From the NCBI RefSeq assembly GCF_003334405.1, contig NZ_QOWM01000009.1: 64,000 nucleotides of DNA. The stretch is one strand, 5' to 3'. Shown here piece after piece: positions 608 through 42,550 of this stretch (position 1 is its first letter; every line of letters starts with the position of its first letter). The notes under the pieces were generated by a model. It was not told the DNA's origin and did not search any database. It was given only the letters and a program-made list of their open reading frames with translations. Origin of the DNA: Escherichia coli (GTDB lineage: Bacteria; Pseudomonadota; Gammaproteobacteria; Enterobacterales; Enterobacteriaceae). A program made the translations under genes and the position numbers.

Positions 608-644
608 ATAAACGGGAGGCGAAGGTGCCTCCCGTTTTGCTTTC
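606..644. terminator. Bidirectional intrinsic terminator between convergent envZ and pckA
   Basis: 9-bp stem ACGGGAGGC / GCCTCCCGT (612-620, 627-635), loop GAAGGT, A-run before and TTTTGCTTT after. Confidence 0.75.
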
Positions 645-35916: not shown

Positions 35917-37290
35917 TTAATGGTTGGAGAACCAGTTCAGTTTATCGCGCAGGCCAACAACCCGACCAATAATAATTAGCGATGGACTGTTCATTTGCTG
36001 CGCCAGTTCTCCCAGCTGTGTGAGCGTACCGTCAATCACGCGCTGCGTGACTGCCGTACCGTTTTCGACAATTGCCACCGGCATTTCGCCTGGCATTCCG
36101 TGTTCAATCAGCTTTTGCTGAATAGTCGCGGCCTGATTCAACCCCATATAGAACACCAGCGTCTGTTTTTCTGCCGCCAGGTTTTCCCAGTCCAGCTCGC
36201 CACCGGTTTTTAAGTGTCCGGTAATTAAGCGTACGCTCTGGGCATAATCGCGATGCGTGAGTGGAATACCCGAATAGGCAGAGCAACCAGAAGCTGCGGT
36301 AATACCCGGAACCACCGAGAACGGAATACCCGCGTTGCACAGTGTTTCCAGCTCTTCGCCACCACGGCCAAAAATAAACGGATCGCCACCTTTCAGCCGC
36401 ACCACGCGTTTGCCTTTTTGCGCTTCCCGCAGCAGGATCTGGTTAATCTCTTCCTGGGGTACGCAGTGGTATCCCGCGCGTTTGCCGACGAAAACACGGT
36501 CCGCATCGCGGCGTACCAGATTCATAATATCGTCAGAAACCAGACGGTCGTAGACCACCACATCTGCCTGCTGAATTTGTTGCAGTCCTTTCAGTGTCAG
36601 CAGCCCGGCATCGCCCGGACCTGCACCAACCAGCACCACTTCACCGCGATGGTCGAGCGGTTCGTTGATTAACTGTTCGGTCGTTTCAGTAATGGCTTTC
36701 TGATCGTTGTTTGCCAGCGACTGCGCCAGGCGGTCGTTAACGAACAATTTCTCCCAGAAACGGCGACGCTCACCCATCGTGGCGAACTGTTGTTTCACTC
36801 GCCCGCGTAATTGCCCGGCGTATTTCGCTACCTGGCCCAGATGTAACGGCAGCAGTGATTCAAGTTTTTCGCGCAACAGGCGTGCCAGAACCGGAGAGGT
36901 GCCGCCAGAGGAGACCGCTACCATGAGCGGTGAGCGGTCAATAATCGACGGCATAATAAAGCTGGCGGCTTTCGGCGCATCGACCACGTTACAGAAGATG
37001 CGACGAGCTTCAGCGGCTTCGCTGACGCGCTGGTTAAGCGCGTCATCATCCGTCGCTGCAATCGCCAGCCAGCAGGTGTCGAGAAGGCTTTCATCAAATG
37101 GCCCTTCGACGAGGGTTAACATGCCTGCATCTGCCCATGCGGTGAACTGTGGAATAAACGCTAATGCATTCACCGTTAAGCGAGCGCCTGCGTCTAACAG
37201 CAACCTTGCTTTGCGTTCCGCGACATCACCACCGCCGACAATCAGACAGTCGCGATCGCGTAATTGGCAAAATATAGGCAAATGATCCAC
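35917..37290 (-). CDS. cysG: Siroheme synthase (uroporphyrinogen-III methyltransferase / dehydrogenase / ferrochelatase)
   Basis: N-terminal Rossmann LIVGGGDVA and methyltransferase GAGPGD; 457 aa with GTG start at 37288-37290. Confidence 0.95.
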
Positions 37291-37308
37291 GTAAAAACCC
37301 CTTAGTAA

Positions 37309-38115
37309 TTAACCGGCAGCCGTTTCAGTTTGATTAAATTTGTCCGCAACCGGACGATTCGCTTTCGGCGTAGCATACCAATAACCCAATCCCATGAATA
37401 CGGCACCTGATAAAGTATTACCCAGCGTCACCCACAGCAGGTTATGACCAATACCCGCCAGCGTGTAGGCTTCGCTGTGGTTGCCGAACCAGGAGAGCGC
37501 GAACAGCGTCATGTTAGCGATAGAGTGCTCGTAGCCGGACGCGATAAATGCCAGCAGACACCACCAGATAGCGATAAATTTCGCCGCCCCTTCAGTGCGC
37601 AGCGCCATCCAGATTGCCAGGCAAACCAGCCAGTTACACAATGCACCTTTGAAGAAGAGTACCATTGCCGGTGCAGTGGTTTTAGCCAGCGCGACGGAGT
37701 GAACGATGCTGGTATCTACCGGCAGCAGGCTACCGCCGCCCCAGCTATAGAGCATGGCAACGAAGACGGAACCGACCAGGTTACCCAGCCAGGTTTGCGG
37801 CAGGATTGCCCACATTTGCCCGTGGCTGATGCTGCCCGCTTTTACCCCAAAGGTGAGGAACATGGTGTGTCCGGTGAACAGTTCAGAACCGGCGATAATC
37901 ACCAGCGTTAAGGCGATACCAAAGGTCGCGCCCATCACCAAAGGGCGTACGGATGGATCGAGCAAATTACCGAGCGTGAAAATCAGGATGATCCCAAGAC
38001 CCACATACGCGCCCGCCATGGCGGAGCTGACCCAAAAGCCGAGCGGGTTATTTGCCGACAGGCGTGCAATGCGCGCAGCGTTAGCCGCACACTTATTAAT
38101 AGTGTCTGTAAACAT
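37309..38115 (-). CDS. nirC: Nitrite transporter (formate/nitrite transporter family)
   Basis: 268-aa polytopic membrane protein between nirD and cysG. Confidence 0.9.
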   Translation of the reverse strand: MFTDTINKCAANAARIARLSANNPLGFWVSSAMAGAYVGLGIILIFTLGNLLDPSVRPLVMGATFGIALTLVIIAGSELFTGHTMFLTFGVKAGSISHGQMWAILPQTWLGNLVGSVFVAMLYSWGGGSLLPVDTSIVHSVALAKTTAPAMVLFFKGALCNWLVCLAIWMALRTEGAAKFIAIWWCLLAFIASGYEHSIANMTLFALSWFGNHSEAYTLAGIGHNLLWVTLGNTLSGAVFMGLGYWYATPKANRPVADKFNQTETAAG

Positions 38116-38202
38116 TTGATTATCCTTTAAAAAATAAAAACAAAAAATAAAACAAAAAGTTTAAAAAATGTCCTGCAATATACCGAAGATTATTACAGGA
38201 CC

Positions 38203-38232
38203 ATGCAAAAAGGGGAGGCATTGCGCCTCCCG
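38203..38232 (-). terminator. Intercistronic hairpin with U-tract between nirD and nirC
   Basis: Stem GGGAGGC / GCCTCCC (38213-38219, 38225-38231); the minus-strand transcript continues CUUUUUGCAUGG. Confidence 0.6.
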
Positions 38233-38240
38233 TTAAAACA

Positions 38241-38567
38241 TTAACCGCGCAGCTGCACCACGCCGTCTTTCACTCGCGCTTCGTAATGTTTGACGGAAAA
38301 CTGTTCGTCTTCCATGCACAAGCCGTCGCTTAAGCGAAAACGCTGTTTTTTCAGCGGGCTGGCGACCCACAGCTCGCCCTGGTGTTCCGCAATCAGTCCG
38401 CGTGACAGCACGCTGGACTCGAAGAACGGGTCGATGTTGCTGATCGCAAACACCTGATCGCTGTGATACGGGCGGAAAATCGCGACCTGCTCGTCACCTA
38501 ACAGCGCGCAGACGCCGGTTTCAGGCAGGATGTCATCGATTTTGCAGATGTCTTTCCACTGGCTCAT
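38241..38567 (-). CDS. nirD: Nitrite reductase (NADH) small subunit
   Basis: 108 aa; start overlaps the nirB stop (ATGA). Confidence 0.9.
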   Translation of the reverse strand: MSQWKDICKIDDILPETGVCALLGDEQVAIFRPYHSDQVFAISNIDPFFESSVLSRGLIAEHQGELWVASPLKKQRFRLSDGLCMEDEQFSVKHYEARVKDGVVQLRG

Positions 38568-41107
38568 GCGTTGTCCTCCACCAGAGTTACTGGGATACGT
38601 TCATACGGCGTTGCCGGACGGTGCTGTTCGCGCTCTGGCACCATCTGCACGTTCGGGTCACGCTTGTCGCTGTTGATGAAGTGTTTGAAGCGAGTCTGCG
38701 CAGACGGCGTATTGACCGTTTCAGTCCACTCACACAGTACCGCTTCACGCAGGCGCGCCATCTCTTCTTCCAGATGTGCGTTCAGCCCCAGTTTGTCGTC
38801 AATGATCACTGCTTTCAGGTAATCGATGCCGCCTTCGAGGTTTTCTAACCACGGTGCGGTACGCGTCAGTTTGTCGGCAGTACGGATGTAGAACATCATG
38901 AAGCGGTCGAGATATTTGATCAGCGTTTCGCGATCGATATCCGCCGCCAGCAGATCCGCATGACGCGGTTTCATGCCGCCGTTACCGCAAACATACAGGT
39001 TCCAGCCTTTTTCAGTGGCGATAATACCCACGTCTTTACCCTGAGCTTCTGAACATTCACGGGTACAGCCGGAGACACCGAACTTCATTTTGTGCGGCGT
39101 ACGGATGCCTTTGTAGCGGTTTTCCAGTTCCACGCCGAGGCCGACGCTGTCGCCAACGCCGTAGCGGCACCAGGTGCTACCCACGCAGGTTTTCGCCATA
39201 CGCAGTGCTTTCGCATAGGCATGACCGGTTTCGAAGCCGGCTTCAATCAGCTGACGCCAGATCTCCGGCAGATCGTCTTTCTGTGCGCCAAACATCGCCA
39301 GACGCTGGGAGCCAGTGATCTTGGTGTAGAGATTAAATTCACGCGCGATACGACCTACCGCCATCAGCCCTTCCGGGGTGATTTCACCGCCCGGAGAACG
39401 CGGGATCACCGAGTAGGTGCCGTCTTTCTGGATGTTAGCGAGGAAGTTGTCGTTAGAATCCTGCAGCGGAGTATGTTCCGGCTTCAGAATGTATTCGTTC
39501 CAGCAGGAGGCCAGCAGCGAACCGACGGTTGGTTTACAAACTTCACAACCGTAGCCTTTGCCGTGTTTCGCCAGCAGTTCTTCGAAGGTTTTAATGCCTT
39601 CAACGCGGATCAAATGGAACAGTTCCTGACGCGAATAAGCAAAGTGTTCGCACAGGTTGTTGTTAACTTCGATGCCCTGTTTCGCCAGTTCCGCGTTCAG
39701 TACCTGAGTGACCAGCGGGATACAGCCACCGCAGCCAGTACCCGCTTTGGTTTCAGCTTTCAGCGCCGCAACTGTGTGGCAGCCTTTGTTGATGGCAGCA
39801 ATCAGATCACCTTTGGTGACGTCGAAGCAGGAGCAGATTTGCGCGCTGTCCGGCAGTTTATCAACACCGATAGACGGCTTGCCGCTACCCGAGTGTGCTG
39901 GCAGGATCAGGGAATCCGGGTTTTCCGGCAGTTCGATAGCGTTCAGCACCAGTTGCAGCAGGTTACCGTAGTCGCTGGTATCGCCCACCAGTACCGCACC
40001 GAGCAGGGTTTTGTTGTCTTCGCTGACAATCAGGCGTTTGTAGATCTCTTTACTTTCGTCGAGGTAAACGTAGCTACGTGCGCCAGGCGTGCGACCGTGC
40101 GCATCACCAATACCGCCTACGTCTACGCCCAGCAGTTTCAGCTTGGCGCTAAGGTCAGCACCTTCAAAGGCGTTTTCGCTACCGAGAATATGGTCAACGG
40201 CGACCTGCGCCATTTTGTAGCCAGGTGCTACCAGACCAAATACACGGTTGTTCCAGCTTGCGCATTCACCGATGGCGTAGATATCCGGATCGGAAGTCTG
40301 GCAGGAATCATTAATGACAATACCCCCACGCGGAGCAACGTCCAGACCACACTGGGTTGCCAGCTTATCGCGCGGACGGATACCGGTAGAGAAGACGATA
40401 AAGTCGACTTCCAGTTCGCTGCCGTCGGCAAAACGCATGGTTTTACGCGCTTCAACACCTTCCTGCACAATCTCAAGGGTGTTTTTGCTGGTGTGAACGC
40501 GCACGCCCATACTTTCGATTTTGCGACGCAGCTGCTCGCCGCCCATCTGATCAAGCTGTTCTGCCATCAGCATAGGGGCAAATTCGATAACGTGGGTTTC
40601 AATACCTAAGTTTTTCAGCGCGCCTGCGGCTTCCAGACCTAACAGGCCGCCACCAACAACGGCACCGCGTTTGCTGCGACGGGCGCAGGATTCAATGGCG
40701 TTGAGGTCTTCAATAGTGCGATAGACAAAGCAGTCCTGAGTATCAGAACCTTTGATTGGCGGGATCCACGGGTAGGAACCGGTTGCCATGATCAGCTTGT
40801 CATAAAAAACGGTACGTCCGGCGCTGGAGTGAATCACCTTCTCCTGACGGTTGATGGTGATAGCGCGTTCGCCGACCAGAACTTTGATGCCGTGTTTCTC
40901 GTAGAAGCCTTCGCGCACCAGCGACAGCTCTTCGGCGGTGTGGTGAGAGAAGTAAGACGAGAGGTGTACGCGGTCATAAGCGATGCGCGGTTCTTCACAG
41001 AAAACGGTAATATCAAAGTTGGCCGCATCAGATTTATCAAGAAGATCTTCGATAAAGCGATGGCCGACCATACCGTTACCGATAATTGCGAGTCTGACTT
41101 TGCTCAT
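38564..41107 (-). CDS. nirB: Nitrite reductase (NADH) large subunit
   Basis: N-terminal FAD/NAD fold LAIIGNGMVG; 847 aa; FNR and NarL sites upstream (separate features). Confidence 0.95.
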   Translation of the reverse strand: MSKVRLAIIGNGMVGHRFIEDLLDKSDAANFDITVFCEEPRIAYDRVHLSSYFSHHTAEELSLVREGFYEKHGIKVLVGERAITINRQEKVIHSSAGRTVFYDKLIMATGSYPWIPPIKGSDTQDCFVYRTIEDLNAIESCARRSKRGAVVGGGLLGLEAAGALKNLGIETHVIEFAPMLMAEQLDQMGGEQLRRKIESMGVRVHTSKNTLEIVQEGVEARKTMRFADGSELEVDFIVFSTGIRPRDKLATQCGLDVAPRGGIVINDSCQTSDPDIYAIGECASWNNRVFGLVAPGYKMAQVAVDHILGSENAFEGADLSAKLKLLGVDVGGIGDAHGRTPGARSYVYLDESKEIYKRLIVSEDNKTLLGAVLVGDTSDYGNLLQLVLNAIELPENPDSLILPAHSGSGKPSIGVDKLPDSAQICSCFDVTKGDLIAAINKGCHTVAALKAETKAGTGCGGCIPLVTQVLNAELAKQGIEVNNNLCEHFAYSRQELFHLIRVEGIKTFEELLAKHGKGYGCEVCKPTVGSLLASCWNEYILKPEHTPLQDSNDNFLANIQKDGTYSVIPRSPGGEITPEGLMAVGRIAREFNLYTKITGSQRLAMFGAQKDDLPEIWRQLIEAGFETGHAYAKALRMAKTCVGSTWCRYGVGDSVGLGVELENRYKGIRTPHKMKFGVSGCTRECSEAQGKDVGIIATEKGWNLYVCGNGGMKPRHADLLAADIDRETLIKYLDRFMMFYIRTADKLTRTAPWLENLEGGIDYLKAVIIDDKLGLNAHLEEEMARLREAVLCEWTETVNTPSAQTRFKHFINSDKRDPNVQMVPEREQHRPATPYERIPVTLVEDNA

Positions 41108-41208: not shown

Positions 41209-41368
41209 TATTGCTGATTTGTATAAATTTTCTTAAGTCACGGAATTGTCTGATATTTCATGTTTGTGCAAAAAATAGACAAAATGAGCGGGTTTATAGA
41301 AATAGATGCACGTAGCGGGGGAAGAGAGGAAAAGGCCGGACGACGATAGTGCCGTCCGGCATGAGCAA

Positions 41369-42550
41369 TTAATGAGAGGTCAGGGTGTTATGCTGACGGT
41401 GACGGCTGACGAAACCTAACAGGAAGCACATCACAAAGACGACAGCGTACAGACCGTTTGCTGTAAGCAGTGCCGCCTGCGGACCGCTATGTTCAACGAT
41501 CGGGCCGGTAACCACAAAGGTCAACATAGTACCGATGGTTCCGCAGGTCAGGACAAAGTTAACCAGTTTTGGCGACGGTACTTTGGTCTGCTGTGAACCC
41601 AGGGTGATGATGGTGGTATAGATCGCGCTGGAGAAGAAGCCCAGAGCGAGAATTGACCACGCCATATGTGCTGGTGTTCCGGTGTTAAAGACGTACATCA
41701 GAATCGCAGCCAGACCAGCCAGTACGGTCAGAATGCGTTGCAAATCAAAGAAGCGAAGAATAAAGCTGAACGCCCACATGCCGACCATGTATGACATCCA
41801 GAAGTTACTCACCAGCGTGCCCGCGTCGTTCAGGCTCATGCCCAGGCCTTTGGCATACTCAGGCACCCAGGAGATAAAACCTAACTGACCGAGGATGTAG
41901 CACAACGCCGCAACAGAGAGAAACAGTACGCCGATCCCCCACTTTTCTTTCTCTACCGGAGCATCCGTTTTTGGCGCATGTTTGCCCAGCGCCGGGAACT
42001 CACAGCCGAAGGTCAGAATAAAAATAGCGACATACACCAGCCCGATGCAGGCATAAACCCAGTACCACTCAATGCTGCGCGCCAGTAGAAACGCGGCGAT
42101 CATTGGGAAAATCATCCCAGCCATACTGAAGAAGGAGTCGGTAAATAACAGGCGGGAACCGCGCTGACGCCCTTCATACATTTGTGTTACCAGGAATGTA
42201 CCAATCGACATGGTGATGCCGCTGACCACCCCGAGAATGAACATCGCCGCCGAGAACAGCGCCAGGCTGTGGCTGAACATCAAACCGGCAACCGCCAGCA
42301 CCATCAGGAGAAAGCCAAAACGTAACTGCGTTTTCAACGGGACGATTTCCATCAGCCAGGCGTTGAGGAAGATAGAGATTAAAATGCCGGCGTTGAGGAA
42401 GGTGAAGGTATTACTCATACTGGAAACAGGCAGATTGAAATAATCGGCGATATTTCCCATCACCATCCCGGTGACAATAACCAACGCACCAGTCAGTGCG
42501 TAGGAGAGAAAGCTAATCCATGTGAGCTTGATGCGATTGCTGTTAGTCAT
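41369..42550 (-). CDS. tsgA: MFS-type membrane protein TsgA
   Basis: 393-aa polytopic protein, divergent from ppiA. Confidence 0.85.

Follow-up and report, generated by a model that had tools for sequence, protein, structure and literature searches.

A probable composite RNA control region between nirD and nirC of Escherichia coli and its Salmonella orthologue

The nirB, nirD, nirC and cysG genes of Escherichia coli follow one another on a single strand, and the spacer between nirD and nirC contains a G/C-rich hairpin followed by a run of U. The presence of such a structure in the middle of an operon raises the question of how it acts on transcripts that run from nirBD towards nirC-cysG. The question is addressed here in a window of 64,000 nt, the whole stretch of E. 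coli DNA analysed, for which the first-pass annotation had proposed a partial terminator or attenuator tuning the expression of nirC-cysG relative to nirBD. We consider it probable, at roughly 0.8, that the spacer is a composite operon-internal RNA control region orthologous to that of Salmonella enterica nirBDC-cysG, in which Wang, Chao, Matera, Gao and Vogel (NAR 2020, PMC7038943) described an intra-operonic nirD terminator together with the target region of the small RNA NarS. The nirD–nirC element is already known through this orthologue and its reading as a partial terminator is not new.

Anatomy of the nirD–nirC spacer

The spacer spans 125 nt of the minus strand (38116..38240) and is 100% identical to that of strain MG1655, the identity covering nirD, the spacer and the first 498 nt of nirC (950 of 950 positions). 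The locus was found in all 5426 of the 5426 complete E. coli genomes searched, where the spacer occupies a median of 1 place per genome. A 181-nt query across the spacer was at least 95% identical in 5365 of 5428 records, and the K-12-type allele is by far the commoner. The GC content is 0.31, compared with 0.52 for the whole window. Reading 5' to 3' (Table 1), the nirD UAA is followed by 9 nt, hairpin T1, CUUUUUG, hairpin T2, A-UUUUUU, a U-rich tract, and the nirC RBS and AUG. A 151-nt region around the spacer folds at −40.2 kcal/mol (z −3.62), with T1 and T2 retained in both the MFE and the centroid structure. In MG1655 the 125-nt spacer carries no RefSeq annotation. With a permissive cut-off, an Rfam search of 37000..39500 returned sub-threshold matches only, sroE (RF00371; 22 bits against a gathering threshold of 51, E about 0.05) and IsrM (19 bits against a threshold of 376), both of which were rejected as chance.

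Table 1. Features of the nir operon and of its nirD–nirC spacer in the window (positions are those of the 64,000-nt stretch)
Feature	Position	Strand	Remarks
nirB	38564..41107	(-)	
nirD	38241..38567	(-)	
nirC	37309..38115	(-)	
cysG	35917..37290	(-)	
nirD stop codon UAA	38241..38243	(-)	9 nt before first paired base of T1
Hairpin T1 GGGAGGCGCAAUGCCUCCC	38213..38231	(-)	7-8 bp G/C-rich stem, 3-5 nt loop
T1 tail CUUUUUG	38206..38212	(-)	C 38212, five U 38211..38207, G 38206
Hairpin T2 GUCCUGUAAUA-(10-nt loop region with CUUCGG)-UAUUGCAGGAC	38170..38201	(-)	Escherichia only
U-rich tract UUUUUUAAACUUUUUGUUUUAUUUUUUGUUUUUAUUUUUU	38129..38168	(-)	opens with U6 (38168..38163) directly 3' of T2
NarS pairing site AAAGGAUAAUCAAAU	38114..38128	(-)	nirC SD and start codon, -13..+2 relative to A of AUG (38115)
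33-codon ORF MPPLFAWSCNNLRYIAGHFLNFLFYFLFLFFKG* ("nirE")	38120..38221	(-)	ATG in T1 loop, stop overlaps nirC SD
Published "Rho termination region"	38087 = MG1655 3497031(+)	(-)	28 nt into nirC; most significant ratio change on BCM

T1, whose minus-strand sequence at 38231..38213 is GGGAGGCGCAATGCCTCCC, has both parts of an intrinsic terminator, a G/C-rich stem-loop on the transcribed strand and a U-run 3' of the stem. The first-pass description of a GGGAGGC/GCCUCCC hairpin followed by CUUUUUG after nirD was confirmed at these positions, with a folding energy of −14.7 kcal/mol against −5.8 ± 1.9 in shuffled sequences (z −4.59; 0 of 200 shuffles as good). A consensus terminator scan registered T1 as a stem of 8 pairs (6 G-C) enclosing a loop of 3. 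The bare terminator pattern is not rare in the 6-kb region (11 matches vs 6.6 ± 2.9 in shuffles), so that the support for T1 comes from its fold energy, position and conservation and not from the pattern match. Transcripts terminated at T1 are expected to end near 38207 (MG1655 3496911), which replaces the earlier placement of the end near 38203. The E. coli tail (C, U5, G) is among the shorter ones of the family, the Klebsiella tails comprising U7-8.

T2 also has the stem and the U-run of an intrinsic terminator, 11 or more bp followed by A and UUUUUU (38168..38163). It folds at −14.9 kcal/mol (z −4.38), and 0 of 200 shuffles were as good. The terminator scan missed T2 because the 10-nt loop in its perfect 11-bp stem exceeds the limit of 8 set for the scan. 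Two Escherichia alleles of T2 exist and both fold, at −11 to −19 kcal/mol; the alternative allele retains a hairpin at the T2 place, at −11 to −16 kcal/mol. T2 was looked for in the spacers of other genera and was absent outside Escherichia. T2 is a small Escherichia-specific addition to a known element. T2 and the NarS-complementary site of nirC are the parts of the spacer that the first-pass annotation did not contain.

A consensus promoter scan of the spacer found none on the minus strand. By eye, TGTAATAAT, an extended −10-like motif, can be seen in the 5' arm of T2, but the nirC 5' ends of Salmonella are products of processing and not primary ends.

The U-rich tract contains, on the plus strand, the A-rich 31-mer to which attention had been drawn earlier; it is indeed present, once, but at 38129..38159, 2 nt away from the interval 38131-38161 first given for it. 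With 26 A in 31 positions it has no equal in the window, every other 31-nt stretch of the 64 kb having fewer than 22 of each base. Nine RNWUU motifs occur in the spacer, six of which start inside the U-rich tract while a seventh (38169) overlaps its 5' edge, and the 3' edge of the tract adjoins the NarS pairing site. The tract probably serves as an extended terminator tail, an RNase E entry or cleavage region and an Hfq-binding site. A weak helix between the U-tract and the SD around the nirC start was no better than in shuffled sequences (−5.5 kcal/mol, z −0.57).

The 33-codon ORF of the spacer is one that we take to be the historical nirE, a name that reportedly goes back to Peakman et al. 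in 1990 and Harborne et al. in 1992, the latter being said to have found it untranslated. The frame is intact only in K-12-type Escherichia alleles, comprises 19 codons in locus L003, and is absent in E. albertii, in locus L012, in Salmonella and in Klebsiella, most genera having a loop (GCAAC) without an ATG. Searching the literature for the nirE ORF brought up nothing. We judge the ORF to be non-coding, and it should stay unannotated.

A similar GGGAGGC hairpin had been noted near 612-635, and GGGAGGC...GCCTCCC is present at 614..633, between envZ and pckA; apart from T1, no further palindrome of this kind occurs in the window, where 0.00 were expected. T1 and the envZ/pckA terminator have ACGGGAGGCG...UGCCUCCC in common and are G/C-rich stems beside U-runs. 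The envZ/pckA stem is longer (11 bp, about −20 kcal/mol), its loop is different, and the hairpin lies where transcription units end, whereas T1 is operon-internal. The computed energies of the envZ/pckA hairpin are −20.3 and −20.8 kcal/mol for its two strands, and with A-runs and U-runs on both sides it can serve both convergent genes. Nothing was found to indicate that the two hairpins share an origin or are more than look-alike G/C-rich terminator stems.

Conservation of T1 and the Salmonella orthologue

Eighty enterobacterial nirD loci were fetched, their spacers were extracted and 41 sequences were aligned. Where nirC follows nirD the spacer varies in length from 67 to 402 nt, while its proximal part is constant. 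T1 starts 4-10 nt (mode 9) past the nirD stop in the 41 enterobacterial sequences, and in 34 of the 41 orthologous sequences there are at least five U within 8 nt after the stem. T1 and its U-tract are present in the genera Escherichia, Salmonella, Citrobacter, Klebsiella, Leclercia and Silvania, as well as in Kosakonia, Siccibacter, Phytobacter, Huaxiibacter and some Enterobacter. In the alignment 87.5% of T1 cells are paired, compared with 46-67% for slid partners and 80.6 ± 1.0 for shuffles (0 of 500), and 30 cells are changed on both sides, compared with 11.2 ± 2.9 in shuffles (0 of 500); these controls ignore phylogenetic relatedness, and four rows of the alignment (A1) are out of register. 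Among the compensatory changes in the stem, one pair varies between A-U and G-C (11 sequences) and another between G-C and C-G (8 sequences). In Atlantibacter an unrelated G/C hairpin followed by U5 stands at the T1 place, which indicates that the function was kept while the sequence was swapped.

The distal part of the spacer is a patchwork. Many Citrobacter carry REP-like palindromes there, and a dispersed repeat of about 126 nt, ERIC-like in appearance, lies in the spacers of Salmonella arizonae, several Citrobacter, Leclercia and Phytobacter. In E. coli genomes the repeat has a median copy number of 8. Plain U-rich distal spacers are found in E. coli, S. diarizonae, Klebsiella, Silvania, Kosakonia and others, and most genera have U-rich tracts 5' of the nirC SD.

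Functional tests of the region come from Salmonella. In a mutant in which the stem and the U-track were deleted (ΔsU), nirBD transcripts decreased and nirC-cysG transcripts increased, NarS-induced decay of nirC-cysG was abolished, and repression of a reporter fell from about 30-fold to about 5-fold (PMC7038943). Northern blots revealed a weak full-length mRNA of 5.4 kb beside nirBD, nirC-cysG and cysG species (PMC7038943); the weak 5.4-kb mRNA represents read-through, and termination in Salmonella is thus partial. The 5' ends of nirC are monophosphorylated, processed and located in the U-rich region, and in an rne-ts strain the nirC-cysG species are lost and full-length mRNA accumulates, so that their formation is RNase E-dependent (PMC7038943). 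NarS is released from the narK 3' UTR by cleavage, base-pairs with the SD of nirC over a footprint of −12..+1, and represses nirC alone; as to the hairpin, Wang et al. allow both a terminator and a stabiliser role (PMC7038943).

The E. coli locus has the same stem-loop and U-track after the nirD stop, and the same complementarity between the NarS seed and the nirC SD. The two Salmonella loci in our set (L008 and L027) have GGGAGGCGCAACGCCUCCC after the 'TTAATT' stop region, in line with the published description, and their computed hairpin energies of −14.8 to −15.6 kcal/mol bracket a published value of −14.9. The operon, the place, the stem (GGGAGGC/GCCUCCC) and the U-run are thus shared, with −14.7 kcal/mol in E. 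coli vs the published −14.9, and so are the U-rich region downstream and the conserved NarS site on the nirC SD. With the same stem at the same place and a near-equal energy, T1 of E. coli is directly orthologous to the Salmonella hairpin. The two regions differ in one base of the loop (GCAAU in E. coli, GCAAC in Salmonella), in T2 and its U6, which E. coli and other Escherichia have and Salmonella lacks, and in the distance from the NarS site to the U-track, about 200 nt in Salmonella (PMC7038943) vs about 80 nt in E. coli. The shorter distance reflects the fact that E. coli is without the ERIC-like insert of about 126 nt seen in L008 (subsp. arizonae).

Stem-loops followed by U-runs are known between the cistrons of other operons, at rplL–rpoB and within rpsU-dnaG-rpoD, where partial terminators set cistron ratios through incomplete termination and a fixed downstream step-down. 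Neither of these terminators is known to serve in addition as an Hfq or sRNA platform, and neither is related in sequence to the nir element. In iscRSUA/RyhB and glmUS/RNase E/GlmZ, parallels drawn by Wang et al. (PMC7038943), a polycistronic mRNA is attacked internally by an sRNA or RNase E, after which its distal portion is degraded while a 3' structure preserves the proximal cistron. Other genes and other sRNAs than those of nir are involved there, and in iscR the structure is a REP element and no terminator. By virtue of its U-run, the nir element, unlike the iscR REP element, can also stop polymerase.

NarS pairing and published E. coli transcript data

The nirC RBS and start read AAAGGAUAAUCAA-AUG, and an exact-complement search showed that 38128..38114 is a perfect 15-nt complement of nt 144-158 of MG1655 NarS (narS is annotated in MG1655 as b4813), a match unique in the window. 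The duplex grows to 20 bp (38129..38110) when two G-U pairs are included and has an energy of −22.9 kcal/mol. The core GGATAATCA before the nirC start is widely conserved across genera. An unconstrained RNAduplex comparison of NarS with the spacer gave long duplexes that ignore intramolecular structure, and 39 of 1000 shuffles were as good.

Hfq RIL-seq data of E. coli, as tabulated by Bar et al. 2021 (PMC8175672), contain the region as nirD.nirC.IGT, with 121 chimeric fragments and a single partner. That sole partner (4 interactions, SIC 0.674) matches the features of narK.narG.IGR, that is, NarS. Within the chimeras nirD.nirC.IGT mostly stands first, with an SIC of −0.90, which is target-like, and its sRNA score is 0.009, or 0.005 in the other data set (PMC8175672).

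DirectRNA-seq data of Adams et al. 2021 (PMC7815308, supplementary file 2) give 586 reads upstream and 24 downstream of MG1655 3497031 in 800-nt windows in untreated cells, and 920 and 149 with bicyclomycin (BCM), with a Rho score of 3.95 (p 6e-12). The downstream/upstream ratio at 3497031 thus rises from 0.041 to 0.162 with BCM. In other words, steady-state RNA falls approximately 24-fold over the nirD–nirC junction and about 4-fold of this drop is eased by Rho inhibition, the counts being low and from one aerobic culture, where a drop in steady-state RNA could also reflect differential decay. As the counts still fall from 920 to 149 with BCM, a drop of about 6-fold persists without Rho. Uniform coverage across the junction had been named beforehand as the observation that would speak against a partial terminator; the fall from 586 to 24 in this aerobic culture is the opposite. 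Together with the deletion data of the Salmonella orthologue, this drop in E. coli reads supports the proposal that a partial terminator tunes nirC-cysG relative to nirBD. The proposal is incomplete and not wrong, in that the U-rich tract is more than a spacer: in Salmonella it carries the processed nirC 5' ends and is required for repression by NarS and Hfq.

The nir promoter is nearly silent in aerobic cultures, and ends missing from Term-seq of such cultures are thus weak negative evidence. The curated Term-seq tables of Adams et al. (three aerobic conditions, LB or M63) list no 3' end at MG1655 34969xx, and the TERMITe and TRS supplements have no nirD or nirC entries. Overall, the existing BCM DirectRNA-seq and RIL-seq data of E. 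coli agree with the Salmonella model.

Proposed mechanism and its alternatives

We propose that transcripts from the nirB promoter would meet T1, an intrinsic terminator of hairpin plus U5, 9 nt past the nirD stop and, in Escherichia, T2 with its U6 40 nt further on. Most polymerases would stop and a minority would read through, so that nirC-cysG would be made at a fraction of the nirBD level. The hairpin, or both hairpins, would also cap the 3' end of the nirBD RNA and shield it from 3' exonucleases. The ribosome-free U-rich tract would be the place of RNase E entry or cleavage, splitting nirBD from a 5'-monophosphate nirC-cysG RNA, and it probably also binds Hfq. During nitrate respiration Hfq-bound NarS, cut from the narK 3' UTR, would pair with positions −13..+2 of nirC, block its translation and trigger decay of nirC-containing RNA, and untranslated nirC RNA may additionally be exposed to Rho; cysG would escape through its own promoter inside nirC. 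The steps from termination to NarS repression have been demonstrated in Salmonella by deletion, Northern blot, 5' RACE, rne-ts and reporter assays (PMC7038943), while in E. coli they are reflected in steady-state read counts and RIL-seq chimeras. The present analysis established the anatomy of the spacer, the conserved and covarying T1 stem and the complementarity to NarS. T1 and T2 probably terminate transcription in E. coli, and we infer that the overall effect is split among termination, processing and decay.

The main rival to this mechanism, which we regard as possible but doubtful, is that the hairpins are only 3' caps that stabilise nirBD: a single RNA would be made, RNase E would cut it in the U-rich spacer, and nirC-cysG would decay faster. 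Wang et al. allow such a role, and the processed nirC 5' ends and the loss of nirC-cysG in the rne-ts strain (PMC7038943) are consistent with it, as are the 9 RNWUU-type motifs of the E. coli spacer, the steady-state nature of the read counts and the fact that no Term-seq 3' end was called at T1 or T2. T1, however, has the full anatomy of a terminator, with a U-run directly after the stem in 34 of 41 sequences, which an element serving purely for stabilisation, such as a REP, would not require, and deletion of the stem and U-track in Salmonella raised nirC-cysG, which fits lost termination and not the loss of a nirBD cap. Rho could alternatively be the main source of the polarity at the junction, loading on the long untranslated spacer and on a poorly translated or NarS-repressed nirC, with the hairpins secondary. 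The Rho region that Adams et al. place at 3497031(+), with its change in ratio from 0.041 to 0.162 on BCM, is what this explanation would predict, but these are low counts from one aerobic culture, the drop of about 6-fold (920 vs 149) stays when Rho is inhibited, the U-rich and C-poor spacer would be a poor loading site for Rho, and the conserved feature is the hairpin with its U-run. We therefore hold a mainly Rho-dependent junction to be unlikely.

The remaining explanations have much less in their favour. It is very unlikely that the U-tailed RNA of about 80 nt from T1 to T2 is released as an Hfq-binding 3'-UTR-derived sRNA or sponge. Two hairpins and a U-tail do resemble the Hfq-binding module of sRNAs, and the spacer shows a weak Rfam likeness (22 bits, E 0.05) to sroE, a 3'-end-derived sRNA, but that score is far under the gathering threshold of 51 bits, and T2 is confined to Escherichia. 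Similarly, the spacer was recovered on Hfq in RIL-seq, yet with one partner, an SIC of −0.90 and scores of 0.009 and 0.005, when the lowest score of a known sRNA is 0.1 (PMC8175672). A classical regulated attenuator, in which a nirE leader peptide or an antiterminator helix would decide on T1 formation in response to a metabolic signal, is still harder to credit, even though the 33-codon ORF runs from the T1 loop to the nirC SD and T1, 9 nt from the nirD stop, would lie within reach of the terminating ribosome, judged from an inferred footprint. The ORF is intact only in K-12-type Escherichia and the ATG is missing from most genera, T1 and T2 persist in both the MFE and the centroid structure with no competing helix predicted, and 37000..39500 has no match to an Rfam riboswitch or leader family; nirE is, moreover, said to be untranslated. 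Of the two terms first offered for the element, partial terminator can thus be retained, while attenuator in its classical sense is not supported, there being no predicted competing helix and no conserved nirE ORF. Least credible of all is an origin of the hairpin from a dispersed repeat (REP/BIME, ERIC or the like) or as a chance palindrome, with no specific role at the locus. REP-like and ERIC-like repeats do occupy the spacers of other genera, and a look-alike stem lies at 614..633, but in E. coli the spacer is found at one place per genome (median), and T1 stands at a fixed distance from the nirD stop in the various genera, shows compensatory changes and has a fold z of −4.6.

Within the composite control region orthologous to that of Salmonella, the Escherichia-specific parts allow a more speculative reading, to which we attach a rather low likelihood, that the single terminator of the Salmonella type has become a two-step device in Escherichia, with a ribosome-dependent T1, T2 as a backup, and NarS feeding Rho. 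Being 9 nt from the nirD stop, T1 would lie inside the footprint of the terminating ribosome, so that its efficiency would track nirD translation relative to polymerase. T2 and its U6, 40 nt past T1 and outside the ribosome footprint, would act as a translation-independent back-up terminator and, lying directly 5' of the NarS site, T2 could double as an Hfq-loading module. NarS repression of nirC would then feed Rho-dependent termination inside nirC, at which the published BCM data hint.

What is added here to the published Salmonella element is modest: the conservation of T1 across genera with compensatory changes, T2, the lack of the ERIC-like insert, and the fit of existing E. coli data. 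The element would explain how one promoter yields much of the NirBD nitrite reductase and little of the nitrite importer NirC. During nitrate respiration, NarS would further allow nitrite import to be shut down without touching either the reductase or siroheme synthesis, a logic already published for Salmonella.

Possible antisense transcription and promoter-like motifs

The nirD-nirC spacer may also be read from the opposite strand. In the E. coli read counts obtained in the presence and in the absence of bicyclomycin (BCM), which inhibits Rho, Adams et al. 2021 (PMC7815308) list a region of Rho termination on the strand opposite nirD, with reads of 262/12 in untreated cells and 405/66 with BCM, and a Rho score of 3.56. 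Such a region implies that an antisense RNA runs through the 5' part of nirC and the spacer and ends just beyond T1, the terminator hairpin that follows the nirD stop codon. The sole promoter-like site found on the plus strand by a consensus scan is located within nirC. On the minus strand the 5' arm of T2, the second spacer hairpin, contains TGTAATAAT, which resembles the TGnTATAAT of extended -10 elements; no promoter is called at this position by the consensus scan, for which a -35 element must also be present.

Features of the window and of the spacer repeat
Feature	Coordinates	Strand	Basis or remark
Rho termination region antisense to nirD	~38263	+	MG1655 3496855 (-)
Promoter-like site within nirC	37614..37642	+	consensus scan
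Extended -10-like motif in T2	38189..38197	-	resemblance
envZ/pckA terminator	614..633		GGGAGGC palindrome
T1	38213..38231		GGGAGGC palindrome
Terminator-like site	41335..41360	-	terminator scan
ORF (tsgA by gene order)	41369..42550		
~126-nt repeat	L008:1880-2005		also spacers of L009, L013, L014, L018, L038, L059, L067

Terminator stems in the window and their variation

T1 shares 18 nt (ACGGGAGGCG…TGCCTCCC) with the envZ/pckA terminator, the loops of the two hairpins being different, and the window holds no further palindrome of the form GGGAGGC-N(3-8)-GCCTCCC. The strongest terminator-like site of the scanned region (GCCGGACGGCACTATCGTCGTCCGGC + CUUUUCCUCU) is located directly 3' of an ORF that corresponds, by gene order, to tsgA of the MG1655 annotation, and lies upstream of the nirB promoter region.

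Within Escherichia, a rarer T2 allele (L002, L003 and L012) displays changes at many loop positions while the stem is kept. Among E. coli genomes, 3 of 5428 matches to the nirD-nirC segment lie on records labelled plasmid, and one possum strain, A4 (H42), exhibits only 82.9% identity and about 30 extra bases relative to the 181-nt spacer query.

Absence of nirC after nirD and insertions in the intercistronic gap

Of the 80 enterobacterial loci, 29 lack nirC at this position and have cysG as the gene after nirD (L022, L029, L030-L036, L041-L043, L045-L047, L049-L052, L054-L058, L061, L066, L070, L076 and L077); these 29 derive from Enterobacter, Kluyvera, Pseudocitrobacter, Lelliottia and other genera. 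The nirD-to-cysG distance in these loci is about 105-340 nt, mostly ~135-150 nt. A few of them (L029, L047, L066 and L077) still retain a T1-like hairpin after nirD, and most contain a different conserved hairpin (…aacagcaggaaaaa…ctgctgtta…).

In the nirD-nirC spacer, REP/BIME-like palindromes (gcctgataagcg…gccggatggcggc…ccttatccggcctac) occur in many Citrobacter, and other palindromic repeats (ccctctccc…gggagaggg) in Buttiauxella and Cedecea; the palindrome-bearing spacers of these genera are those of L007, L010, L011, L015, L016, L019, L020, L024-L026 and L028. An inserted dispersed repeat of ~126 nt, which we take to be ERIC-like, separates the nirD terminator from the nirC Shine-Dalgarno sequence in Salmonella arizonae, several Citrobacter, Leclercia and Phytobacter, and accounts for the added spacer length in these loci. 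The element is present at a median of 8 copies per E. coli genome; the nirD-nirC spacers of E. coli and S. diarizonae (L027) do not contain it. The ~200-nt distance published for Salmonella between the terminator and the site at which the small RNA NarS pairs with the nirC Shine-Dalgarno sequence is probably explained by this repeat. The gap between nirD and nirC looks like a hotspot at which small repeats insert.
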